Below, piece after piece: positions 3,852 through 32,000 of a stretch of DNA of 32,000 nucleotides. Numbering within the stretch: the first letter of the stretch is position 1; each line of letters starts with the position of its first letter. The notes beneath the pieces are model-generated. The model did not search any database. It was not told the origin of the DNA and was given only the letters and a program-made list of their open reading frames with translations. Source of the stretch: an archaeon. GTDB taxonomy: Archaea; Iainarchaeota; Iainarchaeia; Iainarchaeales; CSSED10-239. Location: assembly GCA_041677685.1 (NCBI GenBank), contig JBAYPN010000003.1:1-32000 (forward strand), in the 5' to 3' direction. The position numbers and the translations under genes were made by a program.

Positions 3852-6800
3852 CTATTGGGTGGTTGTGTTGCCAGGACCAGAACCGCTAGAGCAAGTAGAA
3901 GGGTAACTTAAAAAATCCTCTTTAATAGAATCAATCTGTTCTTTTGTAAATTTTGTATTATCCTCATTCCATTTGATGTAAGTGCTCTCTTTACTTGAAT
4001 AGATACAGGCTTTATTGTCCTCAATCAAATCAAACAACTTGTTAATAGAAAAGACAATATTACTAATATTAGACTTTAATGCCATATCTTTAATTCCTTT
4101 AAGATCCTCTAACCCATAAAGGAAAGTGTTTTCATCATTAGTAGAATTCTCAATATTTCTTACAAACAATTTATAATTGTCTATAGTCTGAGATGCAGGG
4201 AAATATAGAGTTGTGCTAACTAATGCTGAGCTGATGTCATAACCTCCAATTTTAGATTTTAGATCTAAAGAATGATTATTATAACCCCCACTAGAAAGGC
4301 TTTGTTTATAGTCTTCTAATTTTGAAACAGAATCAAAACTAGAATCATTAATTTCTGAATTAAAGTCCCAAGTTAAAAAGTTGTTAGGTACAACCTCAAC
4401 TAAGTTATTTGGAGTTTTTAAAATATAATTTAGATTATTTTCTTTAAAGCAACCTGCTCTTGCAAAGATTGGAACTGGGTAGCTTGGGCTATAGTCTAGT
4501 TTTAGACTTACAATATCTTGACTTGAAGTTTCTTCTTTTGAAATATTTAACAAGGTACCATTAGAGTTTAAAACTCCTTTAACAGTTGAAGTCTCAAACC
4601 CTGAATCATAATTTCTTAAATTTAAGTTTATTGGATTTTCTTGGTAACCTTCTTTTTCTAGCTCTAATAATTTCAAAGTATCATTACTGTTTAAATAGTA
4701 TAATAATATTTCCTCAGAGGAAAGATTATCTATATAATCATTCTTTGTCCCATACCCAAACCTTGTCTGATCAGCACTTAAAGACATTCCAAGTGGACCA
4801 TCAATTGGTAGATAATAAAACATGTTTATTTGGTTTACAGGAATTTCTTGAACAAAAGAAATATTAAGATCTAATTTATTTTCTAAAAAACCATCTACTT
4901 CAACTTTATAGAGACCAGGTAAAGAAGAATCTTTTGTAATTTTAAAATCACTATTTCCAACTGAAACCTTGTTAAAGAAAGTTTCTTTAAAGTCACTAAA
5001 GTCAACATTTCCAAAGTCACCAGCATAATCTATAAAATCATTTAGAAGATCTTTTGAAACCTTATCTCCAACTAAATAAATATAAAAGTCTTCAGAGTTA
5101 TTATCTTTAAGCCTTACCAAACTTGTTATTAATAGTTGAGCAGAATCACAATAAAATTTTCCAGTTGTATCATACTCTTCTGAACTAGAAACACAGGTTA
5201 CTTCTGATGACTCTAGATTATAACCTTTCCAATTTATTTTATTTGAAGTGTTAACAGCCCAATCATACCTTACCTTTGGAAGTGCAGATTCTCCACTCCT
5301 ACATTGAGAATATTCATCCTTTACTTGACAATCTCCAAAGATAAACAAACTCCCATCCTCTTGAATGTTTGCGCCAACACCTAAACATAATTTTCCTCTT
5401 ATGCCCTCTGGCCACTCTACTTCAACGTTAGGAAGATATCTTGATTTTACAATTATGTTTTTTTTATAAAAACTTGATTTGTTACCAGCAAAATCAAACT
5501 TAAAGAAAATATCTAAATTAGAGTCTACATCTTTTTTTAGTTCTTCTAAGCTTTCAAAGTTACTATTTAATGTAAATTTTAAATTTTTATATTCCCCAAC
5601 TGATATGAAAGGCAAAGCACCATAACTTACCTCTATGTCTAAAAGATTAGAAGGTAGATTTTCATAAGTCAATTTAGTGAAATTAAGATCATAGGTTTGT
5701 GTTTTGTTTGTAGTTTTATATATTACCTCTAGATTACAGTCGCTATCAGAAGTACAATTAATAAAATAATCATCATGTGGATCGATCTCAAAAAGTTTAT
5801 CTTTATCTAGAACTCTTACAAGAACTTCTTTAGTAACAGTTATGTCTTTGTTTCCAAGTCCTAAATTAAATTCTAATCTTAGTTTGTCAAAGGTTTCTGG
5901 ATCTTGACTTATTGCTTTTGCTTTGATTGGAATCTTCAAGGTTTTTGGAATTGATGTGATTTCTAGGTTACTATAATCATTTTGTAATTGAGTATTTAGG
6001 GTTTGTAGGTTAATTATGTTTTCTAGGTGTGGGGTAACTGCACTTGCAACTATGTTATTTAAGGTTATGTTGTTGCCAGATCCTCCTTTACTTATGTCTG
6101 GCAAGAAAATATTGTAATCTAAATTTATGGTGTCTACCTTTTCTTTAATTAACTCAACAGTTGTTAATTTATCTTCTGTTTCTGTAATCAACCCATAAGT
6201 TGATTCTGAGACAAGATTAAGATTAAGATCTCCAAACTTTACAAAATTAAAGGTTAAGTTTGGTAAGTCTATGTACTGTGTTTTAGAAGAATTAACTTTA
6301 ATTAAATTTTCAAATTTTCCAGAAACAGTAAATGGTGTTTGTATTACTAAGTTTACTTGAGAACCATCTACAACAACTGGGGCTTTTATAATTTTAGCTT
6401 CTGCGTCTAAGAGTAATGGTAAACTATTTTGTGAACTTATTTTTTCTTTTGTTTGCAGAATCTTAAAATATTTAGAGTTGTTTGCTCCTGTAAGGTTTAA
6501 GGTAACCTCTTGTAACTTAACATCTTCTAAAGAACTATTCTTATTTGAGATATCATATGTGTTTTCTGAGATGTTATATTGTATGTTGTCATTTACATTT
6601 ATATAATTAATATTATAAGTTAAAGAAGAAGTCCCAACATACACTCCAGACATAACCTTCTTATTTACAGAGATGGTGTTATTTGGGAGACCTAAAGAGG
6701 AATCAAATAAAAAATTAAATTTGATGTTTGCACCTAACAACTCTAGATCAACAAACAAATCAAAATCATCTATTATTCCTGAGCTATTGGTTATACCAAC

Positions 6801-9800
6801 TGTATGTTCTGTAGAGTCAGGCAACACATATTTTACCTCAACTCCACCAATACCTATGTTATTAACGTTATCAATAACTTTAAAGGTAAGGTTATTGTCA
6901 CCAACAAAGATATCCCCATTTGGGTTACTACTAAGAACAGAAACTGAATATTGTAGAGTATCATTATATGTGTAGATTGGGATCTTTAAAGGAGTTGTGA
7001 AAGGATCAAATATCTTAGTAACTATCTTTGGTTCGTTTATAGTCTGACAAAAGCCATCTACTGAGATATTCTTTTTAACAGAGAAATAATAACCAAAGTA
7101 AGCGTTTAGATCAGAGATCAATAAGTTCGGGGAATTGACAGGAACATAGCTAGGGTTTCTATGATATTTATCTATAAACAAATAATTATCATAAATTAAA
7201 TTGTTGTTTGTGTATATTGAACTAGAGTTATAGTCTCCAGTTCTGTTCTGATCATTTAGGTAGATGTAATCTGTATTATATTTATAGTTTGCACCAACAT
7301 CTAAATAATAAGCACCACCTGTTTTTTCAAGAGGCACATCACTTGAGTCAAGTAACTCCCAATCAAGAATATAGTCTTCAGTATCAAAAGGTATCTCAAA
7401 CTTACTTGTCTTTGAGTAGAAATACCCTTGAGGAACAATTGTCCAATTTTCAGGATTACTAAAGCTTGGCTTAAAAACATAATTGCTATCATTTCTAGAA
7501 AGGGCTCTGTAATTAATAACATAATTCTCAAATGGAGAAATCATGTTCTGATTAAAATTAATACCAACACTAAACTCCACAATGTTTATGTTACTATCAG
7601 AGAAGTTAATCTCTAACCACTTAGACTCATCTTCTGTCCAAGAATAAGTGTGGTCAAACTCATAATTGTTATTATAGAATAGACTGTTCCAATCTGTTAA
7701 TTCCCCTGCAAAAGAATATCCAAAGGCTTTGTCTATTTCTTCTGATTGTATGTTAAGATTATTTATATAAATATAATCATTATCAATTAAATGTTGTTTA
7801 CCTGCTCTAATGTGTGCAAAGGACAACTCTTTATTTTCTAGACAAGAAATATATTTAAACTTTAGTTGGTAATTTTGGTTTAAGGTATTATTAACAAAAT
7901 CAATGTTTGAGATTTCTGACTCTCCACTTTCATCAAACAACCCCACAACAACAAGATCAAGGTCTTGACAACTTGAAAGTGATTCAAGTTCAATTTCTTT
8001 AAAGATCTCGTGATTAGGTCTTAAGGTAATCAGTTCTGTTTGGTAAGTTGTAAAGCCTTGTTTTGAAACCACAGCATAGACTTTTGAAACATCATCTTCA
8101 AAGATATATTGTTTATTATAATCTTGACCAGTTACAGGGTTTACAATATAGTTTAAGACAGGTTCGTTTACATAATTGTAGAAATTAATATCATAGTCAA
8201 TTTCATTTACTTTTAAATTTAAGATCTTTGGTATAAATTCTAAATCTATCTCTAGCTCTAAGACATCATTTGCATCCAATTCTTTTATGTTTGATTGACC
8301 TTGTAGATTTTCATAATTATGGATTGAGAAAGCATAATATTCTCTGTTTGCTCTTTGAGAATAGAAGTTAACATCTCCTTGTGAGTTTGTAATTTCTGGG
8401 ATCTCATTGATTAATATAAATTCTTCTTCATTTAAAGATTCTCTAAACAAATATACTTTTGCACCATTTACATTGTTTCCAAAGGTGTCATTAACATTTA
8501 CAGAGACTATTCCGCTATTTAGTTCTGAAGCATATTCTAAATAGATAGTTATATTTTGGTCTAAGGAGTTAACATCATATGGCTCTGGAGAAATATACCC
8601 ATAATCTTCTGTGCCTGAGACTCTAACTTGATAATCATAAAGATCAATTAAATCGAAATTTGCAGAACTTTCTTCAACAACTATTTGTCCAGTTGATGAA
8701 TAATTTGAGTCTGTTCCTTTTAGTTTACTGTACAATAAAATATTTCCAATCACTTCTTCATTTGTGTCAACATCTAACAATTCAACATTTAAATAACCAA
8801 TGTTTCCAATAGTACAGCCATCGCTTATTTGTGTAAGGTAAGGTTGTAAGAATGAATTTGAACAATCTATCTCTCCATCAACACAAAACATTGAATAATT
8901 TGGATCATCACAATCAAAATCCTCTAGCTCTTGAGCAGTAAATAAATATAAGTTAACGTCCTTATTTTGTCCAACATTTACTGTGTAAGGTCCTTGCTTT
9001 GGAATAAATAAAAAACCTTCTTTATTTAGGTTTGTTAAATAACTTCCAGGTAAGATATCAAAGACATGTCTTCCATAGGTGTCAGTTGTGCCTGTGTGTG
9101 CTATAAAGTCTGGGTGAGTGGAAGTGTAAAGATTAGCTGTTGCATCAGTAATTGCAGACTGGTCTATTCTTTTTGCATTAACAGTTAATGTTCCTTTGTC
9201 AGTATTATTTCTTGTAAGTATTACTTTATTATTTTCTGGAACAACTTTGTTGGAGATATCATTATAACTATCTGAACTTACACTTACTCTTAATTCCCCA
9301 CAATTTGCAGGTTGCTTAACTACAACAATTCCACTAGTCACATTCTTGTAACTTGGTTCAGGGATTATTCCTAAATTTGAACAACTAAAAGTTACACTTA
9401 AAGAACTAATGATCAATAGGTCTTGATTGTCAAAGAATTTAATTTCTCTATCTTGTTCTTGGTTGTTGCTGTTTATTAAAGCATATTCTGTGTTTATGTC
9501 TAAGGACACAGAGTGACTTAGATTTTTTTTATTTAATTTAAAACCTATATTTTTTGAAATATAATTTTCTTTAGAAACAATTAAGACTGCTAAGCCCTTA
9601 CCTTTTACCTCTAAAAATTGTGTTTCTCCAAACACATCTGTTGTTTGTGAAGTTATTACTTCATCATTTAATTTTAATTCAACCAAAGCATCGTTTAGTT
9701 GGTTGTTGAAACTATCTGTTACTTCTACAGAGATGTTGTGTACCTTAGAGATGTTAAAAGATATTGTTCCTGACACAAGTAAGTAAATGATTGCTGCAAT

Positions 9801-10064
9801 TATTATTAAGAATAAAATAAAGCTTGGAAATAGTTTATCTATTTTGTCTGTAAGTTTGTTAAGAGGTACCACTCTACTTATAAAGTCAACAAGATCATAA
9901 TATTTATCTTCTAGATAAAAATAAACCCTTTTTGGAAGAGTTGCTCTTTTTGAGAAAGTTACTTTTGGCTTTTTAATTTTAGAAGAGTCTTTTAAATTTC
10001 TCTCTAAATCTTTTTTAGCTTCTTCTAATTTTTTTAGCTTATCATCATTTGTTATTTCTGTCAT
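3852..10064 (-). CDS. Giant (2070 aa) N-terminally membrane-anchored surface protein with beta-sandwich (CarboxypepD_reg/PEGA-like) domains and the shared C-terminal module
   Basis: Uninterrupted 6.2-kb ORF in AT-rich DNA. A roughly 78-aa charged cytoplasmic head is followed by TM FPSFILFLIIIAAIIYLLV. Domains such as ISVEVTDSFNNQLNDALVELKLN...GETQFLEV fit the CarboxypepD_reg pattern. Many N-x-S/T sequons and Cys residues. The C-terminal ~500 aa are paralogous to the 2465-aa and 1009-aa proteins. Confidence 0.95.
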   Translation of the reverse strand: MTEITNDDKLKKLEEAKKDLERNLKDSSKIKKPKVTFSKRATLPKRVYFYLEDKYYDLVDFISRVVPLNKLTDKIDKLFPSFILFLIIIAAIIYLLVSGTISFNISKVHNISVEVTDSFNNQLNDALVELKLNDEVITSQTTDVFGETQFLEVKGKGLAVLIVSKENYISKNIGFKLNKKNLSHSVSLDINTEYALINSNNQEQDREIKFFDNQDLLIISSLSVTFSCSNLGIIPEPSYKNVTSGIVVVKQPANCGELRVSVSSDSYNDISNKVVPENNKVILTRNNTDKGTLTVNAKRIDQSAITDATANLYTSTHPDFIAHTGTTDTYGRHVFDILPGSYLTNLNKEGFLFIPKQGPYTVNVGQNKDVNLYLFTAQELEDFDCDDPNYSMFCVDGEIDCSNSFLQPYLTQISDGCTIGNIGYLNVELLDVDTNEEVIGNILLYSKLKGTDSNYSSTGQIVVEESSANFDLIDLYDYQVRVSGTEDYGYISPEPYDVNSLDQNITIYLEYASELNSGIVSVNVNDTFGNNVNGAKVYLFRESLNEEEFILINEIPEITNSQGDVNFYSQRANREYYAFSIHNYENLQGQSNIKELDANDVLELEIDLEFIPKILNLKVNEIDYDINFYNYVNEPVLNYIVNPVTGQDYNKQYIFEDDVSKVYAVVSKQGFTTYQTELITLRPNHEIFKEIELESLSSCQDLDLVVVGLFDESGESEISNIDFVNNTLNQNYQLKFKYISCLENKELSFAHIRAGKQHLIDNDYIYINNLNIQSEEIDKAFGYSFAGELTDWNSLFYNNNYEFDHTYSWTEDESKWLEINFSDSNINIVEFSVGINFNQNMISPFENYVINYRALSRNDSNYVFKPSFSNPENWTIVPQGYFYSKTSKFEIPFDTEDYILDWELLDSSDVPLEKTGGAYYLDVGANYKYNTDYIYLNDQNRTGDYNSSSIYTNNNLIYDNYLFIDKYHRNPSYVPVNSPNLLISDLNAYFGYYFSVKKNISVDGFCQTINEPKIVTKIFDPFTTPLKIPIYTYNDTLQYSVSVLSSNPNGDIFVGDNNLTFKVIDNVNNIGIGGVEVKYVLPDSTEHTVGITNSSGIIDDFDLFVDLELLGANIKFNFLFDSSLGLPNNTISVNKKVMSGVYVGTSSLTYNINYINVNDNIQYNISENTYDISNKNSSLEDVKLQEVTLNLTGANNSKYFKILQTKEKISSQNSLPLLLDAEAKIIKAPVVVDGSQVNLVIQTPFTVSGKFENLIKVNSSKTQYIDLPNLTFNFVKFGDLNLNLVSESTYGLITETEDKLTTVELIKEKVDTINLDYNIFLPDISKGGSGNNITLNNIVASAVTPHLENIINLQTLNTQLQNDYSNLEITSIPKTLKIPIKAKAISQDPETFDKLRLEFNLGLGNKDITVTKEVLVRVLDKDKLFEIDPHDDYFINCTSDSDCNLEVIYKTTNKTQTYDLNFTKLTYENLPSNLLDIEVSYGALPFISVGEYKNLKFTLNSNFESLEELKKDVDSNLDIFFKFDFAGNKSSFYKKNIIVKSRYLPNVEVEWPEGIRGKLCLGVGANIQEDGSLFIFGDCQVKDEYSQCRSGESALPKVRYDWAVNTSNKINWKGYNLESSEVTCVSSSEEYDTTGKFYCDSAQLLITSLVRLKDNNSEDFYIYLVGDKVSKDLLNDFIDYAGDFGNVDFSDFKETFFNKVSVGNSDFKITKDSSLPGLYKVEVDGFLENKLDLNISFVQEIPVNQINMFYYLPIDGPLGMSLSADQTRFGYGTKNDYIDNLSSEEILLYYLNSNDTLKLLELEKEGYQENPINLNLRNYDSGFETSTVKGVLNSNGTLLNISKEETSSQDIVSLKLDYSPSYPVPIFARAGCFKENNLNYILKTPNNLVEVVPNNFLTWDFNSEINDSSFDSVSKLEDYKQSLSSGGYNNHSLDLKSKIGGYDISSALVSTTLYFPASQTIDNYKLFVRNIENSTNDENTFLYGLEDLKGIKDMALKSNISNIVFSINKLFDLIEDNKACIYSSKESTYIKWNEDNTKFTKEQIDSIKEDFLSYPSTCSSGSGPGNTTTQ

Positions 10065-10067
10065 AAA

Positions 10068-12458
10068 TTACCAAGTATTTGAAATTTTAAAGATTGGTGT
10101 AAAAGGGATTTTAAAAAATTTTTGACTTTGAAAAGGCACAATTAAAGTTCCTCTTAAGACATAAGGCTGTCCTGCACAATAAAGATAATCGTTTTCTCTA
10201 AAGGTATATTCAGGATCATAATTCCATCTTAGATTGTCTTTAGTTACTTTATACTCATATAATCCTAGATCATCATCATAAACTGGAATGATGTCTTCGG
10301 TGTTTGTGTATATTGGAAGTTTCTGATTTTTAACATTTATTTTAAATATCCCATTAAAATTTGAATACTCAGAACTCCAAGTAGAAGGGTCCCAATTTAA
10401 AGAATCATAAGCATAATATATGTTTAGATCATTTGCTTTAATTGTTCCTTGTTTATCAGAATATAAAGAGTATTCTTGAGAAATTCTAAAAGAGGAATTA
10501 TCTAAAGAGATAATGTCACAATAAGGACAATATTTATAATCTATATCCTTAGAGCCAATAGCTATTTGATTTCTAAAAATATTATCCATGTCTAAATTGT
10601 TTGTTACAGAAAGATTAAGTTTATCTGTAAAATAATTAACATTTGAAGTAGTGTCAACATAACAACCATTAATATTTATTTGCCTACATTCTGAGTTGTA
10701 GCCTGAGGTCCTTGTTTTATCAACATTTACTGTATGTAAGGTCTTAGGCAAATAACTTCTTGTTTGTAAATAATTAATATTTATATTTGAATAATTGTAA
10801 CTATCACAATTAAAATTTCTCAGATCATCTTCACTAACCATTTTAATTTCTAAATCCTTTGATTTATTATCTAAATAATCAATATCTAAATCATATAATC
10901 TGCCAGGACTTCCATCAACTGCATTTTGTATACAGCTTTCTTTTTTTTCAGTAATTAAACCTTTTTTCCCAGTAGCCACATCTAAATTAAATTTAGATTC
11001 AAAAGTGTTTGTAATATTATCAAAAATTATTTCAGCAACAGTTCCGGCATTCCCACCATTCCCTGCATAACTTCTTTTTTTATCACAATGATTAATCTTT
11101 TTTCCACCGTTTCCACCATTTCCAGCAGTAATGTTTAAATCTAAAATTCCTTCATTATAAACAGAAGTATTATTTCTCCAAAAGATGTGACTTGAATTCC
11201 CACCGTTCCCACCATGTGCAAAATTAGCAGTATTTCCTCCTCCATGATCAAAACCAGAATCTCCTCCATTCCCACCATTTCCTGAGATTATAGAAATATT
11301 TAAATTTGAATCAATAGAATAGTTATTTATTTCAAAAACATTAAAATCGATATTTCCTGAATTTCCTCCATTTCCACCAAAACCTACAGAACCAGTATCG
11401 CCAATTGATTCAGAACCTTGCCCTGCTAAACCCCCATTTCCTGATTTTAAATTTAAATTTAAGTTTAAATAATTTTCAATTAAATTAGTATTAGTTATAG
11501 GAAGTAAAAATACAGATCCTCCATAACCCCCAAACCCACCTAGTTTCCCTTTATATTCTTTACCCCAAGAATACCCTTTATTTCCATTTGCAGCAATTAC
11601 ATCAATATTTAAATTTCCATAATTTGTAATTGATGAAAAATATAAACTAGAAGACCCACCCTTAATAATATCTCCAAAATTTCCTTCTTCAGATTGATCT
11701 CCAGGATTACAAATATTAGGATTATCATCATCAACTTTTGCAATAACTTTTATTTCTGATGGATTGTCAATATTGTTTTCTTCAACAACCACATCACTTA
11801 AAAATAATGAGACCCCATACTTTCTTTCTTTAGATAATGACGAACAAGCATTAGTTCCTCTTGGTTCTTCATCCATTGTTATATTAGAGCCTTTATTTAG
11901 AATTATCTTAGAATCTTCAATTCCAAATTTAAATTTTGTGTGCATGTCTAAAGAATTGTTTTCTGCAAGATCATCATTAGCAACATAAATTCTCACATCA
12001 TGTCCATTAGTTCTTAAGGTACCTCCAAATGAAAAGTTACCATCATAATCTTGTCCAGTAATATTTAAAACAATGTTTGAAGTTAAAATCAAAGTTGTGT
12101 TTTTTCCTTCACAAGCAGAATTTTTTGAAATTTCTAAAATGTTTGAAAAAGATAAAGGATTTGGAGTTAAAACATCATCAGCACAAGTCTCATAGCAAAG
12201 GACATTACCATCACTACAAGCAGATTCACATGTGCCAAAGTTTGAAATATTATTTTGGCTTGATTGGGGAAAAGAGATCAATGCAAAGTAACAATTTTGA
12301 TTAGAGCTATCACACCCAAGATTGTATAATTGAGCATTTTGAGGAGTTATCTGTGAACTTTCCAATTCACAAAGATCAGCAGATATAAAACTACTTAAAA
12401 ATATAAATGATATTATAATTAAAAATATTTTAATTTTGATTGTATTCTTGTAAACCAT
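10068..12458 (-). CDS. Secreted 796-aa protein: Cys-rich N-domain, Gly/Asn-rich (GNGGNGG) repeat region, Asn/Tyr-rich C-domain
   Basis: ATG start. Signal peptide ...FLSSFISA|D. Repeat region at aa ~280-500. Stop lies 3 nt before the start of the 2070-aa gene, suggesting an operon. Confidence 0.92.
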   Translation of the reverse strand: MVYKNTIKIKIFLIIISFIFLSSFISADLCELESSQITPQNAQLYNLGCDSSNQNCYFALISFPQSSQNNISNFGTCESACSDGNVLCYETCADDVLTPNPLSFSNILEISKNSACEGKNTTLILTSNIVLNITGQDYDGNFSFGGTLRTNGHDVRIYVANDDLAENNSLDMHTKFKFGIEDSKIILNKGSNITMDEEPRGTNACSSLSKERKYGVSLFLSDVVVEENNIDNPSEIKVIAKVDDDNPNICNPGDQSEEGNFGDIIKGGSSSLYFSSITNYGNLNIDVIAANGNKGYSWGKEYKGKLGGFGGYGGSVFLLPITNTNLIENYLNLNLNLKSGNGGLAGQGSESIGDTGSVGFGGNGGNSGNIDFNVFEINNYSIDSNLNISIISGNGGNGGDSGFDHGGGNTANFAHGGNGGNSSHIFWRNNTSVYNEGILDLNITAGNGGNGGKKINHCDKKRSYAGNGGNAGTVAEIIFDNITNTFESKFNLDVATGKKGLITEKKESCIQNAVDGSPGRLYDLDIDYLDNKSKDLEIKMVSEDDLRNFNCDSYNYSNININYLQTRSYLPKTLHTVNVDKTRTSGYNSECRQININGCYVDTTSNVNYFTDKLNLSVTNNLDMDNIFRNQIAIGSKDIDYKYCPYCDIISLDNSSFRISQEYSLYSDKQGTIKANDLNIYYAYDSLNWDPSTWSSEYSNFNGIFKINVKNQKLPIYTNTEDIIPVYDDDLGLYEYKVTKDNLRWNYDPEYTFRENDYLYCAGQPYVLRGTLIVPFQSQKFFKIPFTPIFKISNTW
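10959..11621 (-). repeat. Protein-level repeat array, about 50-54 aa period, each unit an L-N-(I/L)-x-(I/V/L) strand followed by GNGGNGG-type glycine runs
   Basis: Units begin at LNIDVIAANGNKG, LNLNLKSGNGGLAG, LNISIISGNGGNGG, LDLNITAGNGGNGG and FNLDVATGKKG. The DNA shows recurring ccaccattcccacc-type segments. Confidence 0.8.
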
Positions 12459-12613: not shown

Positions 12614-13279
12614 TTATTTTTTTAGCTCAAACCAAAAGGCAAAATCTTTATTACCGTAATCAACACTATTAAATACCATATTAAAATTATAAGAATTGTT
12701 ATAATTTCCTAAATAGGAATTGTTGTAAATATTTTGAGAACTGTTCTTAATATAAAATATAAATAAATCATTATTATATGTTTTTTGAGACAAAGTATAG
12801 TTTTTATTTTCGGAAGAATCTTTAAATTTTGGATCATTAAAAGTATAATCTTTATCTAACTCTAAATTGTTACCAACATTATCTTTTAAAACTCCAAAAA
12901 TAAAAGGTGTCATATATATATTTTTATCAAAAAGATCACCAGATATAGAAAAACCATCTCCTAAATCTTTAGGTTCTCCTTGTGGGTCTCCTGAAGGTTC
13001 TCCTTGTGGGTCTCCTGAAGGTTCTCCTTGTGGATCTTCAGGTAAAGTTGTGTTTTCTCCATAAGTTACTTCACATAAATCATAACAATTAACAAGATCA
13101 ATTTGACAATCAATCACACAAGTTTGTGGGTCAGGATCATCATTACAATTTATCAATTGAATAGAATACTCTACACCACATTCAGTCTTACATTCACTTA
13201 AGTCGTCTGCAGATATAAATGAGCTAAGCATAATAACTAACACAAATAATAAAAATATTTTTCCTAACTTCATAAGCAT
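12614..13279 (-). CDS. Secreted 221-aa protein: 7-Cys N-domain, PQGEPSGD tandem repeat linker, Asn/Tyr-rich C-domain
   Basis: ATG start. Signal peptide ...MLSSFISA|DD is nearly identical at the cleavage region to that of the 796-aa protein. AT-rich TATA-like element AAATATATTTA at -30 to -20. No SD motif. Confidence 0.88.
   Translation of the reverse strand: MLMKLGKIFLLFVLVIMLSSFISADDLSECKTECGVEYSIQLINCNDDPDPQTCVIDCQIDLVNCYDLCEVTYGENTTLPEDPQGEPSGDPQGEPSGDPQGEPKDLGDGFSISGDLFDKNIYMTPFIFGVLKDNVGNNLELDKDYTFNDPKFKDSSENKNYTLSQKTYNNDLFIFYIKNSSQNIYNNSYLGNYNNSYNFNMVFNSVDYGNKDFAFWFELKK
12972..13043 (-). repeat. 24-bp in-frame tandem repeat (2 perfect copies plus 1 degenerate copy) encoding (GEPSGDPQ)n
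   Basis: ggttctccttgtgggtctcctgaa occurs at 12972-12995 and 12996-13019, with a degenerate third copy at 13020-13043. The segment is locally GC-rich relative to its surroundings. Confidence 0.9.
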
Positions 13280-24026: not shown

Positions 24027-27000
24027 TTAACATTTTTTTTGTACATCTGCACCTTTTAATATTATAAAATAATTATTTACCACAGTTATTAAATTTCTAA
24101 TCTGCAATCTTGAAGAATATTCTATTGTATCTAATTGTTCTATTTCTAAAAGTTTATCTTTAATACTATCTAAATTATTATTATACCTATTTAATTCAGA
24201 TTGAGTATACATATCACTATTCTCAAAAATTATATCAGAATAACAATTATATTTTATATTAATACTATATATTTTACTATCAATTAAATTTCTAATCTCC
24301 TTATTTATTACCAAATTTGTTTGTAAAATTTCAGATGTAAAAGAATTAAGTTCATTAATTAAAGAACTAAATGTTGTTGAATCTCCAAAATAAGAACTAG
24401 ACTTATCTTCTGCAAGCGAATATCTACCAAGATATCTATCATAATGATTATCAACAACAGGCAAATTATTATCTAAAATTTCAAAATGATAATTTTTATA
24501 TAAATTTAAATATGATGTTAGATCCAAAAAAGCTAATTGTATTGACTTAATATTTTTTTGATTTAAATCATTTAAAGTAGAAGTTAACCTACTAATATCA
24601 TCAATTACAAAATTATATATATCATTAATATTTGTGTATAATTCTAAACTAACATCATAACTTATATTTTCAAATGCTCTTTTGCTTTCTTGTAATCTAT
24701 TATCTATTTCTTGTACATGATTAGGTGTTACATTCCCCATACTATCATAAATATTTTTTAAATAATTAAATTGATTTATAGATTCAACATATTTACTATA
24801 GTAAGTTGTATATTGATCATAACTTAAAATACTATCTAAATTATTAGTAGTTTTTAGACTAATTATATTTTTATTATATCTAGATAGCTGATCAGAATAT
24901 TCTAAATAGTTATTAATAATTAAATCATCGGTGATCTTATCTCTTAAATTATTATCAAAATCGTTTAATAAGTTACTTATTTTTGAATATATAACAGTAT
25001 ATTTCTCTATATTAAAAATACTATTATTTGATAAATTTAAAGATATCAAATTATCTAAAATTTCTTTTTTACCAAATAAATTATCATACTCTAGTTCAGA
25101 CTTAGCATATAAATCTTGTAATATCTTTTTATTCTCTAACAAAACAGAATCATATTCTATTTTTAATTGCTTACAACTTTTTTCAACCAAATTTTTATAT
25201 TTAGTAATCTCCTTATATTTTTCATCATTTGAAATTGAAGTATCATTCACACTATTTTGTAAATTTAATAAATTTAATTTGCAATCATCAAGATTATCAA
25301 ATCTTGTATAAGTTCGGTCCTTTAAATTTGAAGCATTATTTTTAATACTAGAATAATAACTAATATCTTTTTCAGCAATACTAACTAAATTTAAAATATC
25401 ATTGTCAGTAATTCTACTAACACAATTTTGTGTATAAAGATTATTAAATAAGTTTACTTTGGAATTATTTAAAGTATTTAAAGTACTATATTTAGAACTA
25501 ACAGTTGTATATTCATCTTGTAATTGAGAAGAAATATTTAATAACTCTTCGATCTTATCCATACTTGACTTAATATAACCTAACTCTTTAGCAACTTCTT
25601 TAGCCAAATAAGCAAAACTCTCAGTATTTTGACTATCTAGATAATTTTCACAAACACTTTTCTTTTTTAAGCCTAAAAATCCTTTTGGTAAATCATTAAA
25701 TGATTCTATATCTTTATATTCATTAACAAAATCTTGAAGTTCATCTAATTTATCAGAAGTGTGTTTTAATTGATTTATTGTATTTGAAACCAACTCACCT
25801 TGTGTTTTCTTATAATCTATAATTTGCAAATAAAATTTATAAGTTGTATCAAAATTAGATTTTAGAATTGAAAAATCCTTTCCTGACTTTAGATTTGGAG
25901 CTTCAATTTTCAATTTATTTATTTGTGCATATTCTTCCATTCCTGAATCTAAGTTATTTTTTGCAGATTCTAAAAGAGTATTAGTTAAAGTATCTAAAGT
26001 TTCATTTGTTTTTAAATTTAAACTATTTCTATATTGATTTAATTCATCTATCTTATTTGTAATATCAGAATCATAATCGCTATTAAATTTAATAATAAAA
26101 TCAGGATTATAATTTTTTGTAAAATCTTCATAAATTGGTTTTAAATAATTTTTAAATGAAAGTAATTTATCAGAATTAAACAAACTTAAATCAGATTCTA
26201 AATTATCTGCTAAAGAACTATATTGTGTTACACCATCTCTTTTAAATAAACCTAAAACATACTCTGCATTTTCAATTGCAATTTTATAGTCATTATCTTC
26301 TACAATAGTATCAAAATGTAATTTGTTATATATATTTTTTTTAGTTGGATTATCTTTTATAATATCTTCTTCCATAACAGAAATTATAAACACTATCTTT
26401 TCATTTAGTTTTTCTAGTTCAGAATTTTTAGATCTTAAATTATAAGTTGTAATAGTATTTATTTCTGATTCTATTTCTGAAATTTCAGAAGTACAATTAT
26501 ATATATAATATAATAAAGCCTGTGAAAAATCTTTTTTTAAATTATTGTAAATTTCACATTTATTTTTAGTATCTTCTAATAATTTATTATAATTTTCTAA
26601 ATCTGAAGAATCAAGCACATCTTCAAACACATCTTTAAATTCTTCAAAATATTCAGAATGTGATATCAACTCAGAATAATTTTTTGAAAATTCTAAATAA
26701 TTTTTCAAATCTACCTTTTTTGAAGAAGAAATATAGTTTATATTTTCTTTTAAAGAAGTAATTTTACTTTGAATATCAAGTTTAGAATATCCTTTTATTA
26801 TATCACTAGAAAACTTTTCAGATAATATTTTCTCAACAACTACTATTTGTGTGTTTAACTCAGAACTTAATTCTTTTGCATTTCCTAAAATCAAACTAAT
26901 TTGAGAATCTAACATTAATTGATTACCATCAACCAAATTTTTTTTATCTGTTAAAGAAATATGACTTTTAGCAATTTGGTTGCTACCAATTAAGTTATTA

Positions 27001-28004
27001 AGACTAGACATTTCTTTCTCTAAACCTTCTTTTGCTAATTTTGCTAACCTTATTTTCTCAGTATTTTGTTCTAATGATTTAATTGTATTTAATTTGTCTA
27101 AAATAATAATAGAGTTATTTAAATTATTAATTAAATCTTTTTTATGAATTGTTTTTTTTAATTTTTCTAAATCGTTACTTAAATCTTTTTGATTTATACA
27201 ATTTTTTGTATATAGTTCAGAAGCTTCTTTTTTAACAACTAAAAACTTTGCTTTTTCAGAATCTGAAAAGAAATTTTTAACATCTTGAGATAATTTTAAA
27301 ATATCAGGACAATTAGAAGTATTATAGTCCTTAGTAAGTTTATTTAAAAAAGATGAATATATATCTAAATTATATCCTGATAATGCAGAATTATTTTTTT
27401 TTAAGTTTTTACAAAGAAAATTTATATTTGAAGAATTATTTTCTTGTTGAGCTGCAAAAAATCCAGTTTTCGTATTATTATAATCTGTAATTTCTCTTGA
27501 TATTTCTTCTTTTATATTTACTATATAATCTATTTTTTCAGCACAATTTTTTGAGGATAAATCTGCTATCTCTGAATTTGCTTGTAAATCATTTGTTGCA
27601 CCTGTTAAATTAGTACTCAATTGATTTATTTGTTGACTTAAAGATTGTTTAAATTCTTGTGAAAAATGAGGTGAATTTTGAATATCTTTATATAATTTTC
27701 TCTTCTCTTTTAATATAAATCTTTCAATATCATCAAATTTTTTTTGTGCTTTTATTAATTGTACTTCTAGTTTAGAATTTTTATCAGGATCTGTTGATGT
27801 TTGATATTCTGTTAAAATTTTTTTAAGAAAAGCTATATGCTCATTTTGCTTTTTAACTAGTTCTATATTATATTCTTGAATTTTTTTTTTTATTTTATCT
27901 TTTGGAACTTCTTGAGAATAAATATTTGAACTAATAAAAATAACTATAAATAAAAGAATTAAAAAACTAAAAATTATTTTTTTACATATTTTATAATCAC
28001 TCAT
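24027..28004 (-). CDS. About 1325-aa secreted/anchored Asn/Lys/Glu/Ser-rich coiled-coil protein with scattered single Cys
   Basis: The long ORF in the track starts at a TTG (28016). The first ATG is at 28004 and gives MSDYKICKKIIFSFLILLFIVIFISSNIYS|QE, a typical signal peptide. The rest has heptad-like helical low complexity. It starts 14 nt after the stop of the upstream gene. Confidence 0.9.
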   Translation of the reverse strand: MSDYKICKKIIFSFLILLFIVIFISSNIYSQEVPKDKIKKKIQEYNIELVKKQNEHIAFLKKILTEYQTSTDPDKNSKLEVQLIKAQKKFDDIERFILKEKRKLYKDIQNSPHFSQEFKQSLSQQINQLSTNLTGATNDLQANSEIADLSSKNCAEKIDYIVNIKEEISREITDYNNTKTGFFAAQQENNSSNINFLCKNLKKNNSALSGYNLDIYSSFLNKLTKDYNTSNCPDILKLSQDVKNFFSDSEKAKFLVVKKEASELYTKNCINQKDLSNDLEKLKKTIHKKDLINNLNNSIIILDKLNTIKSLEQNTEKIRLAKLAKEGLEKEMSSLNNLIGSNQIAKSHISLTDKKNLVDGNQLMLDSQISLILGNAKELSSELNTQIVVVEKILSEKFSSDIIKGYSKLDIQSKITSLKENINYISSSKKVDLKNYLEFSKNYSELISHSEYFEEFKDVFEDVLDSSDLENYNKLLEDTKNKCEIYNNLKKDFSQALLYYIYNCTSEISEIESEINTITTYNLRSKNSELEKLNEKIVFIISVMEEDIIKDNPTKKNIYNKLHFDTIVEDNDYKIAIENAEYVLGLFKRDGVTQYSSLADNLESDLSLFNSDKLLSFKNYLKPIYEDFTKNYNPDFIIKFNSDYDSDITNKIDELNQYRNSLNLKTNETLDTLTNTLLESAKNNLDSGMEEYAQINKLKIEAPNLKSGKDFSILKSNFDTTYKFYLQIIDYKKTQGELVSNTINQLKHTSDKLDELQDFVNEYKDIESFNDLPKGFLGLKKKSVCENYLDSQNTESFAYLAKEVAKELGYIKSSMDKIEELLNISSQLQDEYTTVSSKYSTLNTLNNSKVNLFNNLYTQNCVSRITDNDILNLVSIAEKDISYYSSIKNNASNLKDRTYTRFDNLDDCKLNLLNLQNSVNDTSISNDEKYKEITKYKNLVEKSCKQLKIEYDSVLLENKKILQDLYAKSELEYDNLFGKKEILDNLISLNLSNNSIFNIEKYTVIYSKISNLLNDFDNNLRDKITDDLIINNYLEYSDQLSRYNKNIISLKTTNNLDSILSYDQYTTYYSKYVESINQFNYLKNIYDSMGNVTPNHVQEIDNRLQESKRAFENISYDVSLELYTNINDIYNFVIDDISRLTSTLNDLNQKNIKSIQLAFLDLTSYLNLYKNYHFEILDNNLPVVDNHYDRYLGRYSLAEDKSSSYFGDSTTFSSLINELNSFTSEILQTNLVINKEIRNLIDSKIYSINIKYNCYSDIIFENSDMYTQSELNRYNNNLDSIKDKLLEIEQLDTIEYSSRLQIRNLITVVNNYFIILKGADVQKKC

Positions 28005-28018
28005 AAAATTACACAACT

Positions 28019-28858
28019 TTAATTATTTACACAGCATTTTTGATACATTTCACCAGAAAAATTAGGTACATCACAATTTATTATTTCTATATTTAATTCT
28101 GTATTATCTACATTTAACCAAAAAAGATTAACAAAATTATCCAATTCAATATTTGATTCACAACCATATCTTTTTGTACCATCTGAAGTTGTATACGGAT
28201 ATTTATTTCTATATCCTTCTAAAAATAAGCTACAACATTCTTCAAAAACAATATGTCCTAAAGGAGAATTACAAGCATCAAAAGTTCCACCAACTACATT
28301 AGTATCTAATTTACAAGCTCTTGCAAGATTATCATTTTGTCCACTACACATATAAGCGTAAGGATCACCTTGCATTCTTAAATTATAACCAATACAATTT
28401 TCTTGAGGTTGAAGAACTTCTAAAGGATATTCACAAGCAGAATCAGCAAGATATTCACAAACATTAGACACATCTAAATTTTGATTATTCAAACAATTTT
28501 GTTTAAAATTATTATAAGCTAAAATATCTGCATTTAAATCATTATAAGTTCTATTAATATCATCTAGTTTTTCATCAATTTCCTTAATCTTAACCATTTT
28601 TTCTTCTAATAAAGGATATATACATGACCCATCTGAACTTTTAAAACAAGCTAATATCTCTTCTAAAACAGGCATAACTTCATCATATAATACTACAAGT
28701 GATGTGTTATAAGAATCAATATCTTTATTTAAACTATCTTTATAATTTTCTAAACCCTCACAAGTATAAGTACCTTCTGAAAATAAAAAACCTAAATTTA
28801 AAATACCTATAACTAAAATCATCAATAATGATAATAATATCTTATAATATCCTTTCAT
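28019..28858 (-). CDS. Secreted 279-aa Cys-rich protein (16 Cys, including two CC pairs)
   Basis: ATG with AGGTAAT SD-like motif upstream. N-terminal hydrophobic signal ILLSLLMILVIGILNLGFLFS. A helical N-half is followed by a Cys-dense C-half. Confidence 0.9.
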   Translation of the reverse strand: MKGYYKILLSLLMILVIGILNLGFLFSEGTYTCEGLENYKDSLNKDIDSYNTSLVVLYDEVMPVLEEILACFKSSDGSCIYPLLEEKMVKIKEIDEKLDDINRTYNDLNADILAYNNFKQNCLNNQNLDVSNVCEYLADSACEYPLEVLQPQENCIGYNLRMQGDPYAYMCSGQNDNLARACKLDTNVVGGTFDACNSPLGHIVFEECCSLFLEGYRNKYPYTTSDGTKRYGCESNIELDNFVNLFWLNVDNTELNIEIINCDVPNFSGEMYQKCCVNN

Positions 28859-28896: not shown

Positions 28897-31800
28897 CTAT
28901 TCAACTTCTGGTAACATTTGATTAGAAAGTTTTTTTGTTTGTTCAATCATATCCTTTACCATATTAATTACATTTTGATTATCAGTATCTGAGCCAGAAG
29001 ATGCTACCTCTTGCCCAGGAGAATTAGTATATAAAAACCTCATCTTAATAGGTGATGGAGCAGGAGTACTAATTCCTGCTAATTTATTATATCTTTTTAA
29101 TTTCTCATTATACTGATTTATAAATGGAGTACATCCATTAATATTTTTCAACTCACCATTCTCATCAATACAACCATTATCTCTTAATTTTTGCAAAATA
29201 TCATCCAACTCATCTAAAGCTTCTTGTAACTTCTTATCTTTACTCTTAAAGAGGTTAGATATAGCACTAGATTGTATCAAAGCAGAACCACCAGCAGTCA
29301 TTAAAGCATCTCTTAGCCCTGACAAGAAAGCCATTCCAAGTCTGCTTGAGTTACTTAGCTTAGCTTGTCCTGTTATTTCTTGTTGATAACAAACATTAAT
29401 TAAGTTAGCTGTATCATATGATTTTGCCTTAACCTCTAAACCTGTATTTTCAGAAGTCTCACTTCTAAACAGATCAAACTCATATCTATCTAAGTCTAAA
29501 CAAGAATCAATTGGTCTAACAATTACTTTTATTTTTCCAACGTTTCTTTCACTTCCTCTTCCATCTGCTAACTTAGAATACACATTTATTTGGTATTGTC
29601 CAGGTATAGCATCATATGAGGTTACACTTATTTCATTACTTGATCCTGTTTCTGAAACATTAATTGCTTGTCTTGGTTGCATAACAATACCAGTACAGTC
29701 ATCACAAGATAGTCTGTAGGTAGTGTCTGCACCACAACCTTTATTTTCAATAACAAATGTATCTGGGTTCTTGTAAAGTGTTAAGACTTCTTTTGAAAAA
29801 AGTACACAATCTTTTAAACTTAAAACATCAATTGTAAAATTATATTCATTAATTATTTCTTGATCTCCAGAGCTTGTAGCATTTACAGATCTAAAGATTA
29901 TTTTTCCAGAAATTTCTCCTTTCATCCTTGATGCAGGTTCATATCTTACAATCACTGGATAACCTGTGTCTCTATCAAAGGCATCTAATACTCTTTTATA
30001 GTAACCATGTGAAAGCTCAACACTTCTACTTCCAACACTTAAATAAAACTTTCCTAAAGGACTACTTGTAAACTCAACTTTTGCTTCAAGTCCACCAGTT
30101 AAAGGCACAGTTCTTTCATTCATTGTACAAGTATTATTTATTGTAAATTGTTTTTCAATAGGTTTTTCTTGAGCTACTGCTGTCCAATCATACTCAGACA
30201 AAGTCAAACAACTTGAGTCATCTAACATTCCATCAAAACCAACAACAACATTTACTGGAATTTCATTTATCCAAACTGGTGAATCTCCAAGTTCTGATCT
30301 TAAGGATATTCTTAATCTCCCAGAAAGATTTTGAACTTCTCTAATTCCTTCAGCTCTTGGATTAATATTTAAAGTTATTTGTATATTTTTAGAAGCATCA
30401 TCGTTGTTTGGAAAATCATTAATTGTGTCTAGACCTTTGATAGTTGTTCCAGAGTAACCAACCAACTGAGCATTAATTCTATCAACATCAATAATATCTA
30501 AACCTTCTCCAAGAAGTTCCATTGATTCTATTTCTAAGTCAAGAGATGAAATATTATTAATGGTTATACTTTCTGTTTTTGATTTTTCATTATAAACATT
30601 TAAAGTGTATGATAATTTCTTTGGAGTTATTGTAAACAACTTATCAGTTGTTGTAATCTCTTGAATATATGTCTCATACTCAGGAGCAGTAACATACACA
30701 TAGATCTTTTCATTTGCACCTTGTTGAGGGATACCATCTACTGTTATTTCTCCTAACTTCCCTACTTCTCTAGGATTAATAAGATTATCTAAAAATCTAT
30801 CCTTAATGTTAACAATTGAGTCATCTACTTCTAAACCTGTTTGGTTATCTTTGACATTAACTAGTAAACTAAAGTCTTTTCCTGCAGGAATAACCATTGG
30901 CTTAACAGTAACTTTAAAGGTCTTGTCAGATAGAACATTAATAATTATTTCTTTTACAAATTGTATTTGTTGATCAGAAACAAATTTAATTACTAAATGT
31001 CTTTCTCCTGTCAACAATGTTCCAAATTCGATATCTCCTTCTACCTTTTGTTTAGAGGCAAGAGAAGAAATTGCATAATCAAATTCATAATCTCCTGCTT
31101 GTGGAGTTACATTATAGATATTTCCATTTGGTTGAGATATTAAAATCTTTGTAAAATTAAATCCTTCATCTTTATTTTCTATTAATAATCTTGAGTCTAT
31201 ATATTTTTTATTTTCTTGATTATTAACTAACATAAAATGTAATTTATAATCTTTATTTGGGTAAGCTTCATAGATGTCACTAACATCTGCTCTCAAGTCA
31301 TTTGTAACATCAACAATGTTTGCACTAAAACAAAAATCATCAGTACAAAAAATTTCATCTCCAATTCCATAGCTAACAACACTGTAAACATCAAAGTATT
31401 CCACAACATCTTCAGTCCCAGTATATGGGTTATATGTCTCAATACCGTTGTCTGTTTGCCCATAACCCAAATAATACATCTTTAGTTCTTCTCCAAAGAC
31501 AGCAATATCTTTTACTTTTATGGTTGCTGTTATCTCATAAGCATTCAAATATTCTAAAGATTCATCATTATCATAATTTGTTTCTTTAAAAATTACTTTT
31601 GCCCATTTAGCATCAGAGTCTGTTTCAGTTTCACTATCTCCAATTCCATCAACCTCATAAGGTTCACTCATGTCAGTATCAAATTGTGTGTATTTTTTAA
31701 TAGAGAAAGCATTTGGAACTTCAATAGACTTAATATATAAAGAATCATTCTCTAAATAAACTGTTGAACCAGTTCTAATAATTGCTCCAACACTCTCAAA

Positions 31801-32000
31801 TCTGTCATCTCCACTTCTATTCTGTGGGACTAACATAGTATATCTAGCTTCATATTCCCCATCCATCTTTAAGTTACCATTAACTTGCTCTTGTCCTTTA
31901 TAAAGTCCATTAAACACAAGCTGTGGCTTTTGTAAAGCTGAGGTGATAGGGTATAAGGTTACTTCTAAGTTTTTAGTTATTCCTGGAACCACTCTAACAT
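28897..32000 (-). CDS. C-terminal >1031 aa of a giant surface protein (5' end outside the window); paralog of aa ~600-1500 of the 2465-aa protein
   Basis: The frame stays open to the window edge. The M at 31992 in the track is a GTG inside the open frame. Strong motif-level similarity to the 2465-aa protein, for example FCTDDFCFSANIVDVTNDLRADV versus LCTEVFCFSGQFLDVKEDLRYDI. Confidence 0.93.
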   Translation of the reverse strand, partial: VRVVPGITKNLEVTLYPITSALQKPQLVFNGLYKGQEQVNGNLKMDGEYEARYTMLVPQNRSGDDRFESVGAIIRTGSTVYLENDSLYIKSIEVPNAFSIKKYTQFDTDMSEPYEVDGIGDSETETDSDAKWAKVIFKETNYDNDESLEYLNAYEITATIKVKDIAVFGEELKMYYLGYGQTDNGIETYNPYTGTEDVVEYFDVYSVVSYGIGDEIFCTDDFCFSANIVDVTNDLRADVSDIYEAYPNKDYKLHFMLVNNQENKKYIDSRLLIENKDEGFNFTKILISQPNGNIYNVTPQAGDYEFDYAISSLASKQKVEGDIEFGTLLTGERHLVIKFVSDQQIQFVKEIIINVLSDKTFKVTVKPMVIPAGKDFSLLVNVKDNQTGLEVDDSIVNIKDRFLDNLINPREVGKLGEITVDGIPQQGANEKIYVYVTAPEYETYIQEITTTDKLFTITPKKLSYTLNVYNEKSKTESITINNISSLDLEIESMELLGEGLDIIDVDRINAQLVGYSGTTIKGLDTINDFPNNDDASKNIQITLNINPRAEGIREVQNLSGRLRISLRSELGDSPVWINEIPVNVVVGFDGMLDDSSCLTLSEYDWTAVAQEKPIEKQFTINNTCTMNERTVPLTGGLEAKVEFTSSPLGKFYLSVGSRSVELSHGYYKRVLDAFDRDTGYPVIVRYEPASRMKGEISGKIIFRSVNATSSGDQEIINEYNFTIDVLSLKDCVLFSKEVLTLYKNPDTFVIENKGCGADTTYRLSCDDCTGIVMQPRQAINVSETGSSNEISVTSYDAIPGQYQINVYSKLADGRGSERNVGKIKVIVRPIDSCLDLDRYEFDLFRSETSENTGLEVKAKSYDTANLINVCYQQEITGQAKLSNSSRLGMAFLSGLRDALMTAGGSALIQSSAISNLFKSKDKKLQEALDELDDILQKLRDNGCIDENGELKNINGCTPFINQYNEKLKRYNKLAGISTPAPSPIKMRFLYTNSPGQEVASSGSDTDNQNVINMVKDMIEQTKKLSNQMLPEVE

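Follow-up and report, generated by a model that had tools for sequence, protein, structure and literature searches.

A conserved operon of predicted giant membrane-anchored surface proteins in the archaeal phylum Iainarchaeota

Results

Most of a ~37-kb operon lies in the window

We analysed the first 32,000 nucleotides (nt) of contig JBAYPN010000003.1 from an archaeal assembly (GCA_041677685.1), hereafter the window, most of which is occupied by a single row of genes for very large proteins predicted to be secreted or anchored in the membrane. Eight co-directional open reading frames (ORFs) on the minus strand, labelled A to H from the lowest coordinate to the highest, were found by an ORF scan to take up 27,632 of the 28,149 nt (98%) between positions 3852 and 32000, with intergenic gaps of 3, 155, 145, 89, 85, 2/14 and 38 nt from the A side to the H side, in agreement with the ORF sizes, coverage and gap list of the original prediction, which had been made from the letters of this island. 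Since about 8% of random codons would be stops at the 29% G+C content (GC) of the stretch, island ORFs of 800-2465 codons are not the product of chance.

The largest of them, D (13425-20822), encodes a giant of 2465 amino acids (aa) that carries the whole architecture described below in one chain. A (3852-10064; 2070 aa) is a divergent fourth giant paralogue, and E (20912-23941; 1009 aa) is the C-terminal half of a split paralogue, HE, whose other half is H (28897-32000). At least 1033 codons of H, its C-terminal part, are in the window, and the full protein has 1623 aa in the source contigs (L002-L006). Between H and E stand G (28019-28858; 279 aa) and F (24027-28016; 1329 aa from a TTG start or 1325 aa from the ATG at 28004), and between D and A stand C (12614-13279; 221 aa) and B (10068-12458; 796 aa), all four predicted to be secreted. 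The limits originally drawn at 3852 and 32000 proved too narrow on both sides: genes for two small membrane proteins, s122 (3294-3662; 122 aa, three predicted transmembrane helices) and s116 (2937-3287; 116 aa, four predicted transmembrane helices), also on the minus strand, lie beyond A, and the source contigs extend the cluster further upstream, beyond the window, by the N-terminus of H and by X, a paralogue of 2342 aa. On these sequence comparisons, the window holds most of a ~37-kb operon whose core is formed by the giants X, H+E and D; we estimate that the operon takes up about 4% of the genome, by comparison with the 0.84-Mb closed genome of Candidatus Forterrea.

A hydrophobicity scan placed an N-terminal hydrophobic segment in seven of the seven island proteins whose start is visible, so that the claim of a signal peptide or membrane anchor at every such N-terminus holds; the N-termini of B, C, E, F and G resemble signal peptides, and those of A (residues 79-97) and D (residues 33-51) are predicted signal anchors preceded by cytoplasmic segments. 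Two compositional claims stood only in part. The island proteins are rich in N-x-S/T sequons (1.1-2.3 per 100 aa, against 0.23 in the neighbouring histidyl-tRNA synthetase, HisRS), but this mostly follows from their Asn/Ser/Thr-rich composition (shuffle z from -1.3 to 2.2, reaching about 2 in A and E only), and we rejected sequon enrichment as an independent sign of glycosylation. An abundance of Cys is true of G (5.7%), C (3.2%) and B (2.3%) only, the giants having about 0.9%.

Gene order is conserved across Iainarchaeota

Proteins identical to those of the window were found on metagenome contigs of landfill/groundwater type and in metagenome-assembled genomes at NCBI named 'Candidatus ainarchaeum sp.' or 'archaeon', where all of them are annotated 'hypothetical protein'. 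The nearest closed genome is that of Ca. Forterrea multitransposorum (Iainarchaeota), in which E is 43% identical, and the suggestion that the host is a DPANN archaeon was therefore right. A scan for the family of E in one genome per species of GTDB returned 185 relatives, and among the 80 matches listed nearly all are labelled Iainarchaeum, Diapherotrites or unclassified archaeon.

We fetched 71 loci, classed their ORFs against the window proteins and read the gene order from the 42 loci longer than 15 kb. A stereotyped order, X-(g147)-HE-D-s122-s116-g87-g106-g127b, is held in more than 40 Iainarchaeota loci, including those of the closed genomes of Ca. Forterrea and AR10 and that of Ca. Iainarchaeum andersonii; g147, a small protein with four transmembrane helices, is present only sometimes, and the HE-type giant is occasionally split. 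Throughout the phylum the second giant remains recognisably of the HE type and the third of the D type, and dozens of relatives, with identities as low as about 22%, retain the order. The surroundings of the cluster on the chromosome vary from lineage to lineage (with PolB and an M24 peptidase in one of them, and transfer RNAs, HU and HisRS here), so that it is the cluster itself that is conserved. Synteny in relatives and profile searches had been named beforehand as the points on which the case would turn: the gene order is conserved and the profile searches assign the proteins to no known family.

In the closed AR10 genome, an extra giant of 2169 aa with the N-terminal motif of the family (locus L112, ~296-314 kb) lies far from the main operon (L097/L030, ~680-700 kb), from which it follows that some lineages have dispersed additional copies.

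Three ancestral giants, a split and a recent insertion

Four of the eight proteins had been described as paralogous. This is correct for A and D, which are full-length paralogues, while H and E turned out to be the two halves of a third. In an all-against-all BLAST comparison, residues 600-1274 of D match H (2.5e-27) and residues 2061-2448 match E (6e-29), and in distant relatives HE is fused, a single protein of 2,400-2,900 aa spanning both halves; in one of them (L009 g2625), residues 600-1438 match H (3e-94) and residues 1929-2607 match residues 279-984 of E (2e-60). The ancestral paralogous giants are three, X, HE and D, to which A was added as the fourth in the clade of the window, where its orthologues (L007 g2113 and L008 g2129) are 34-36% identical; full-length orthologues of D are 37-53% identical. 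Another locus (L010; ENA ERZ27254845) has two successive split pairs (1135+785 and 1156+989 aa), with two unsplit giants next in line, so that splitting at the mid-chain hydrophobic linker must have occurred repeatedly and independently.

F and G form a block of 4.8 kb (24027-28858) located exactly at the split between H and E, with a GC of 0.20-0.21 against about 0.30 elsewhere, and they are missing between H and E in every relative examined, including L007, L008, L015 and L093, the closest of which is 57% identical in E. Composition and distribution both indicate that F+G is a low-GC, species-specific insertion and not part of the conserved operon. Since F contains only 2.4% Pro+Gly and has a hydrophobic periodicity of 3.5 residues, it is probably a long alpha-helical fibre. 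The N-termini of F and G resemble each other; neither has relatives among the viral contigs of IMG/VR, and F has no match in the PDB. A viral or mobile origin of F/G, or of the giant family, was rejected given the lack of relatives in viral contigs. The island is thus not one uniform set of eight, as first thought: F+G is an insertion of recent date confined to the species, A, B and C are specific to the clade, and H+E correspond to one protein.

The giants have conserved ends and Ig-like stalk domains

The giants begin with a conserved cytoplasmic motif of about 35 residues (~YYxLEDKYYxxLDKIxxxxPVYKVxDPIDKVxPSF) that runs directly into a transmembrane helix; in D, motif and signal anchor (33-51) make up residues 1-51 (20670-20822). 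A has a cytoplasmic extension of 78 aa, its motif and helix being residues 45-97 (9774-9932), followed by domains of the immunoglobulin (Ig)-like type and the C-terminal domain, and the cytoplasmic parts of the giants in general comprise 30-80 residues. In a metagenome scan the motif was seen only at the N-terminus of large ORFs, of 1,154-2,895 aa if complete and of at least 3,044 aa in one that runs off its contig, and for this reason it should be regarded as a family-specific anchor module; that it is a general sorting signal was rejected on the same ground, its confinement to large proteins of the giant family.

After the anchor come, in D, six tandem beta-sandwich domains of about 85 aa each, resembling CarboxypepD_reg (residues 63-604, 19011-20636), as mapped with an iterated hidden Markov model; the Pfam scan of D had matched this family (PF13620) at 1.6e-20. 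About 900 more variable residues follow, including a seventh Ig-like domain at residues 932-1024 of D and near ~930-1060 in the giants. The same iterated model placed the domains at the same positions in H, in L009 g2625 and g2366 and in P0038, and found six, in a looser arrangement, in A; most of the six domains of H, with its motif and transmembrane helix, fall beyond the window. CarboxypepD_reg, SpaA, Big_1 and related Ig-like domains were the sole library matches obtained, strong in D and under the curated cut-off in A.

Where the N-terminal region of D meets the C-terminal domain, there is a Gly/Ala-rich hydrophobic hairpin of two predicted transmembrane helices (residues 1516-1556, 16155-16277; Kyte-Doolittle values of 1.9-2.1 over 19 residues), which is kept in the D-type orthologues. 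The other paralogues examined have a Gly/Ala-rich segment at ~1450-1560 that is weaker than in the D-type, with the exception of A, in which no mid-chain hydrophobic segment was detected. E starts with a signal peptide of its own, after which come a Gly/Ala-rich hydrophobic segment at ~50-95 and the C-terminal domain at ~280-1009. The giants have no hydrophobic segment at the C-terminus, their last residues being ...CIKD, ...DAFDCN and ...GNTTTQ.

The last ~700 residues are the best conserved region of the giants across the phylum, and together with the anchor motif they are the parts that can be aligned across all paralogues and the whole phylum. In D this C-terminal domain extends over residues ~1760-2465 (13428-15545), with invariant Cys and the motifs YCDATQ and RQGYG; conservation among D orthologues is lowest at residues 1500-1700 and 1900-2000. 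A profile search of 1.84 billion representative proteins gave 691 clusters, 409 of them at E <= 1e-30, with the domain at the extreme C-terminus of proteins of 1,800-3,250 aa or of split forms of ~850-1,100 aa (shorter matches seem truncated), and it was not found in the viral contigs of IMG/VR.

An AlphaFold model of full-length E from 13 sequences was poor, with a predicted local distance difference test score (pLDDT) of 53.7, and its Foldseek matches were uninformative; that of residues 280-1009 from 43 sequences was confident (pLDDT 84.8; predicted TM-score 0.76). Among the 50 best Foldseek matches of the latter in the PDB, only an FN3/Ig-like insert of about 110-130 residues was recognised (best E 1e-3), and the six matches in BFVD just under E = 0.001 had TM-scores of about 0.1 in five cases and of 0.36 over a short stretch in the other, with root mean square deviations of 13-38 Å. 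As modelled, therefore, the core of the C-terminal domain appears to have no recognisable structural relative in the PDB or BFVD beyond the FN3-like insert.

Small membrane proteins always accompany the giants

Genes for small polytopic membrane proteins invariably accompany those of the giants, two in the window (s122 and s116) and up to five in other lineages; no homologues of g87, g106, g127b or g147 were found in the window. s122 was found in 25 of the 42 loci longer than 15 kb and is 37% identical to its counterpart in L009 (g127). In comparison with a genome in which the giants show only about 23% identity, the two small proteins are 37-41% identical to their counterparts. s122 has a basic C-terminal tail and two Asp residues that are invariant in 19 sequences from across the phylum, one near the N-terminus and the other, Asp77 (3432-3434), within the last transmembrane helix (ILVDFFF), which is a hint of ion or partner binding within the membrane. 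In some strains (L087, L090, P0248, P0250) a stop-codon polymorphism (window positions 3288-3296) fuses s122 and s116 in frame into a protein of 241 aa, a fusion with which their predicted topologies are compatible and which implies that the two proteins act together. Profiles of s122 (19 members) and s116 (17 members) gave no match in Pfam or the PDB better than E ~0.005, and the matches at that level were unrelated, none of them MotA/ExbB or ExbD/TolR.

Strain variation is concentrated outside the C-terminal domain

Seven near-identical contigs (99.5-99.97% identity), which are consensus metagenome assemblies, were compared for single-nucleotide polymorphisms (SNPs). H, G, F and D together have 54 nonsynonymous and 3 synonymous SNPs, and E has none. 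With about 80% of sites nonsynonymous, the ratio of nonsynonymous to synonymous rates (dN/dS) is ~4.6 (binomial P = 0.0015), and it is still ~3.5 (P = 0.012) once a cluster of 12 changes within 33 codons of H (residues 985-1017 of the partial protein), which may be a single event such as one recombination tract, is removed. A partly overlapping set of contigs gave 8 nonsynonymous to 0-1 synonymous changes in B and 3 to 0 in A. Along ~10 kb of adjacent housekeeping genes (HU, HisRS, AlaRS, ProRS, PLD, methyltransferase, ligase) there were no SNPs, and a neighbouring ORF of 214 aa had one.

The variants of D fall at residues 166-1989, most densely at 1253-1390, and none at 1990-2465. An excess of nonsynonymous changes is what would be expected of an exposed surface, and the giants appear to consist of two conserved ends and a variable middle that is under positive selection.

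Accessory genes and neighbouring signals

In the Forterrea-like clade, C, B and A are inserted between D and s122. B, which is specific to this clade, has four or five Gly-rich repeats of the GNGGNGG type spaced about 40-50 residues apart and flanked by conserved Cys, a pattern kept in the two orthologues aligned; it gave no match in Pfam or the PDB, and the repeats might form a beta-helix or beta-solenoid. The Cys-rich C, a clade-specific accessory with weak orthologues in L008, L014 and L015, contains a variable number tandem repeat of 24 nt (12971-13037) encoding GEPSGDPQ, and the protein has 213, 219, 221 or 227 aa among otherwise near-identical strains, in which the copy number of the eight-residue repeat varies.

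Upstream regions read by eye showed Shine-Dalgarno-like motifs of the GGTG type before D, E, G, A and s122. The sequence TATCTAAATACT is found 10-20 nt ahead of the starts of both C (13280-13300) and s122 (3663-3685) and may be a common promoter or translation signal. Outside the operon, a gene for a bacterial-type HU protein (PF00216, 1.5e-30) lies at 2475-2735, between those for tRNA-Arg (2851-2924) and tRNA-His (1903-1977). The g87 of distant relatives was considered as a possible HU and rejected, since g87 is a membrane protein; the HU of the window has no relation to the operon.

No named family or system matches the operon

All eight proteins were scanned against Pfam and NCBIfam at E <= 0.1, and against PHROGs and PADLOC, neither of which gave a match; as the Ig-like matches were the only ones returned by the four libraries, the original failure to recognise a catalytic motif was borne out. 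Searched with the sequences of D, E, B and F and with the profiles A1, A4, A7 and A8, the PDB yielded no meaningful match. In the literature searched on DPANN giant surface proteins, Diapherotrites, Forterrea, Iainarchaeota and S-layers (surface layers), the cluster is not described; it is not mentioned in the part of the Forterrea genome paper available to us (PMC5905446), and the gene-cluster terms searched for did not occur in the paper on the attachment organelle of YN1. As far as sequence comparison can tell, no named family or system matches the operon, as had been stated from the letters alone, and its products are predicted to be giant Ig-rich archaeal surface proteins drawn from several families without a match in Pfam, NCBIfam or the PDB.

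Discussion

Since the operon is fixed across the phylum and combines stable sets of paralogues with membrane anchoring, Ig stalks, small membrane partners and conserved ends, we tentatively favour the reading that it encodes a heteromeric envelope assembly, be it a coat resembling an S-layer or a surface array of spikes. In such an assembly the small membrane proteins would make up a platform to which the giants attach by their N-terminal motif and transmembrane helix, a stalk would be formed by the six Ig-like domains, and the conserved C-terminal domains of the different paralogues would bind one another to form an outer layer. The variable middle regions would then be the exposed faces, driven to change by viruses, hosts or competitors, and B, C, F and G would be secreted accessories, added in this lineage, that decorate or extend the structure.

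Several points weigh against a coat of this kind. Known S-layers, to our knowledge, are made of one or two proteins, not of three or four giants with five small membrane proteins. A transmembrane hairpin in the middle of the chain, as in D, is unusual for an S-layer protein, and the fold of the C-terminal domain, as far as the model goes, offers no clue to function. The SNP analysis comprises 57-68 variants that are not independent and come from consensus assemblies, and the positive selection and surface exposure to which it points would suit an organ of host contact equally well.

A precedent for a giant archaeal surface protein is PySLP, the 292-kDa S-layer protein of Pyrobaculum arsenaticum, which has 19 Ig-like domains and a membrane anchor (bioRxiv 10.64898/2026.08.21.746120). 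The likeness to the giants of the operon, as predicted here, would extend to the size (archaeal proteins of 230-290 kDa), the single membrane anchor, the long run of Ig-like domains, the combination of an Ig stalk with a lattice-forming part, the conserved Cys and the faster divergence of exposed faces than of assembly faces. A tandem Ig-like array in a protein of more than 2000 aa, as in PySLP, is found in D and H (six domains and a seventh) and in A (six, looser). Unlike PySLP, whose anchor is C-terminal, with a membrane-proximal beta-hairpin and a basic tail, the giants are anchored at the N-terminus, where they carry the cytoplasmic motif. PySLP also forms its layer from a single gene, whereas here there are three or four paralogues and small membrane proteins, and the giants differ further in the hydrophobic segment in the middle of the chain and in a C-terminal domain that is not of the Ig type and has no fold match; no sequence relationship between the two was detected. 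The SlaA/SlaB layer of Sulfolobales is likewise a multi-component envelope in which an anchored protein with an Ig-domain stalk holds a canopy off the membrane (bioRxiv 10.64898/2026.08.21.746120), but there the stalk, that of SlaB, is a coiled coil and a second, soluble protein makes up the canopy, and the system lacks sets of giant paralogues, small polytopic partners and homology to the operon. None of the eight proteins matched the S-layer families of Pfam (S_layer_N/S_layer_C, DUF1608/MSTP-type, PGF-CTERM-anchored) at E <= 0.1. A survey of predicted S-layers lists them, within DPANN, for Altiarchaeota, Aenigmatarchaeota, Nanoarchaeota, Micrarchaeota and Nanohaloarchaeota, and in the part of it available to us none is named for Iainarchaeota (bioRxiv 10.1101/2024.05.28.596244).

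The island was originally proposed as a candidate for host attachment, and it is somewhat unlikely, though by no means far-fetched, that the operon is a dedicated apparatus for host attachment or cell-cell contact, in which the giants would be long adhesins of an ectosymbiont whose variable regions bind the host surface. The organism is a DPANN archaeon with a small genome, and Ca. Forterrea was predicted to be symbiotic, according to the part of its genome paper available to us (PMC5905446). The SPEARE proteins of Nanohaloarchaeota, which have been implicated in host interaction, are also giant, mostly extracytoplasmic, membrane-anchored DPANN proteins with variable outer parts that account for ~4% of a ~1-Mb genome (PMC6642349). 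The strong nonsynonymous excess would fit an arms race with a partner, and the lineage-specific additions A, B, C, F and G suggest adaptive tinkering. On the other hand, the order of the operon is fixed and the orthologous sets of paralogues are stable across the phylum, and a best-conserved, strain-invariant C-terminal domain is not what would be expected of a receptor-binding tip. Nor did the Pfam and NCBIfam scans reveal a lectin, laminin-G, protease or toxin domain; SPEARE proteins, in contrast, have serine-protease, laminin-G, toxin-like and type III restriction-endonuclease domains, none of which occurs in the operon proteins, and their genes stand outside any conserved operon with small membrane proteins. 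AR10 (1.24 Mb) and Ca. Iainarchaeum andersonii, which have the operon too, belong to a phylum that had earlier been proposed to be free-living, as stated in the part of the Forterrea paper at hand (PMC5905446). We therefore do not favour host attachment, because a fixed core operon and a conserved, strain-invariant C-terminal domain suit a constitutive envelope at least as well.

Consecutive genes for very large surface proteins are not exclusive to these archaea. In Mycoplasma mobile, a bacterium with a reduced genome and no conventional cell wall, the genes for Gli123, Gli349, Gli521 and P42 form a series of consecutive genes for giant membrane-anchored surface proteins, and gliding is powered by an internal ATPase. 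As in that operon, where co-directional genes for giant surface proteins form one surface machine, the giants studied here are encoded side by side; the Mycoplasma system, however, is bacterial and without sequence relationship, and there is no hint of a motor in the Iainarchaeota operon. Giant1-5 of Apilactobacillus kunkeei are also encoded by five consecutive, very large surface-protein genes, which account for several per cent of the small genome, but they are bacterial, belong to a narrow lineage, have other domains and show neither phylum-wide conservation nor fixed partners (PMC12863079). Relationship to a type IV pilus or archaellum receives no support, as no class III signal peptide and no match to PilB/FlaI or PilC/FlaJ was found in the cluster or its called neighbours.

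A more elaborate possibility, which we consider improbable, is an energised contact or bridge device unique to Iainarchaeota, with three paralogous giants clamped by their N-terminal modules to an Asp-bearing platform of small membrane proteins, hairpins that would enter the membrane of a partner and a C-terminal domain of new fold. Very unlikely is an ion-coupled surface machine, in which movement powered by the small proteins from an ion gradient would be passed outward by the giants for motility, uptake or secretion. The Asp in the last helix of s122 is invariant in all 19 sequences, and no other partners accompany the giants as persistently as the small polytopic proteins do. GldM/PorM and TonB are anchored at the N-terminus, a layout that the giants resemble in having an N-terminal anchor followed by Ig-like domains. 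Nevertheless, a lone conserved acidic residue is weak evidence: Asp77 recalls the intramembrane acidic residue of MotAB, ExbBD-TonB, TolQRA and GldLM, a resemblance that is insufficient for membership, s122 and s116 gave no profile match to MotA_ExbB, ExbD/TolR or any other family of Pfam or the PDB, and no ATPase or motor gene is present in the conserved neighbourhood.

About as unlikely is a device for membrane insertion or fusion, by which the Gly/Ala-rich segments would enter a host membrane and open cytoplasmic bridges. Such segments do occur at the same junction in the paralogues examined, A excepted, and in distant relatives, the split protein E has one directly after its signal peptide, and intercellular nanotubes between DPANN archaea and their hosts have been observed (PMC11329633). 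The segment of D is, however, hydrophobic enough to be a plain transmembrane hairpin in the cell's own membrane, no clear heptad-repeat region lies beside it, and no fusogen, whether a fusexin or class II protein (HAP2, Fsx1) or a class I viral fusion protein, was among the 50 best Foldseek matches of the C-terminal-domain model, in the PDB or in BFVD. Finally, that the genes have no joint function, being unrelated large surface genes gathered by chance or in a hypervariable island, or else part of a mobile or viral element, can hardly be maintained: F/G is a compositionally distinct insertion and all the products are annotated 'hypothetical', but synteny in more than 40 species-level genomes and in different chromosomal contexts contradicts it, the family has no relatives in IMG/VR and no match in PHROGs or PADLOC, the flanks are tRNA and housekeeping genes, and neither the ORF list of the window nor the Pfam scans of the ORFs examined contain an integrase or transposase.

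Iainarchaeota, or Diapherotrites, are the 'D' of DPANN. We know of no cultured member, and no microscopy or description of the envelope was found in the literature searched. Their way of life is disputed between free-living and living on hosts, and the operon provides a molecular handle on the surface of these cells and on their contacts. The families without a match in Pfam, NCBIfam or the PDB comprise the N-terminal anchor module, the ~700-aa C-terminal domain, B, s122 and s116, and the operon could supply antigens or tags for enrichment and imaging, as well as marker genes for the phylum. If it encodes an S-layer, that layer would represent a new architecture, heteromeric, anchored at the N-terminus and provided with a membrane platform; if it encodes a contact organ, it would be a first candidate for one in Iainarchaeota.

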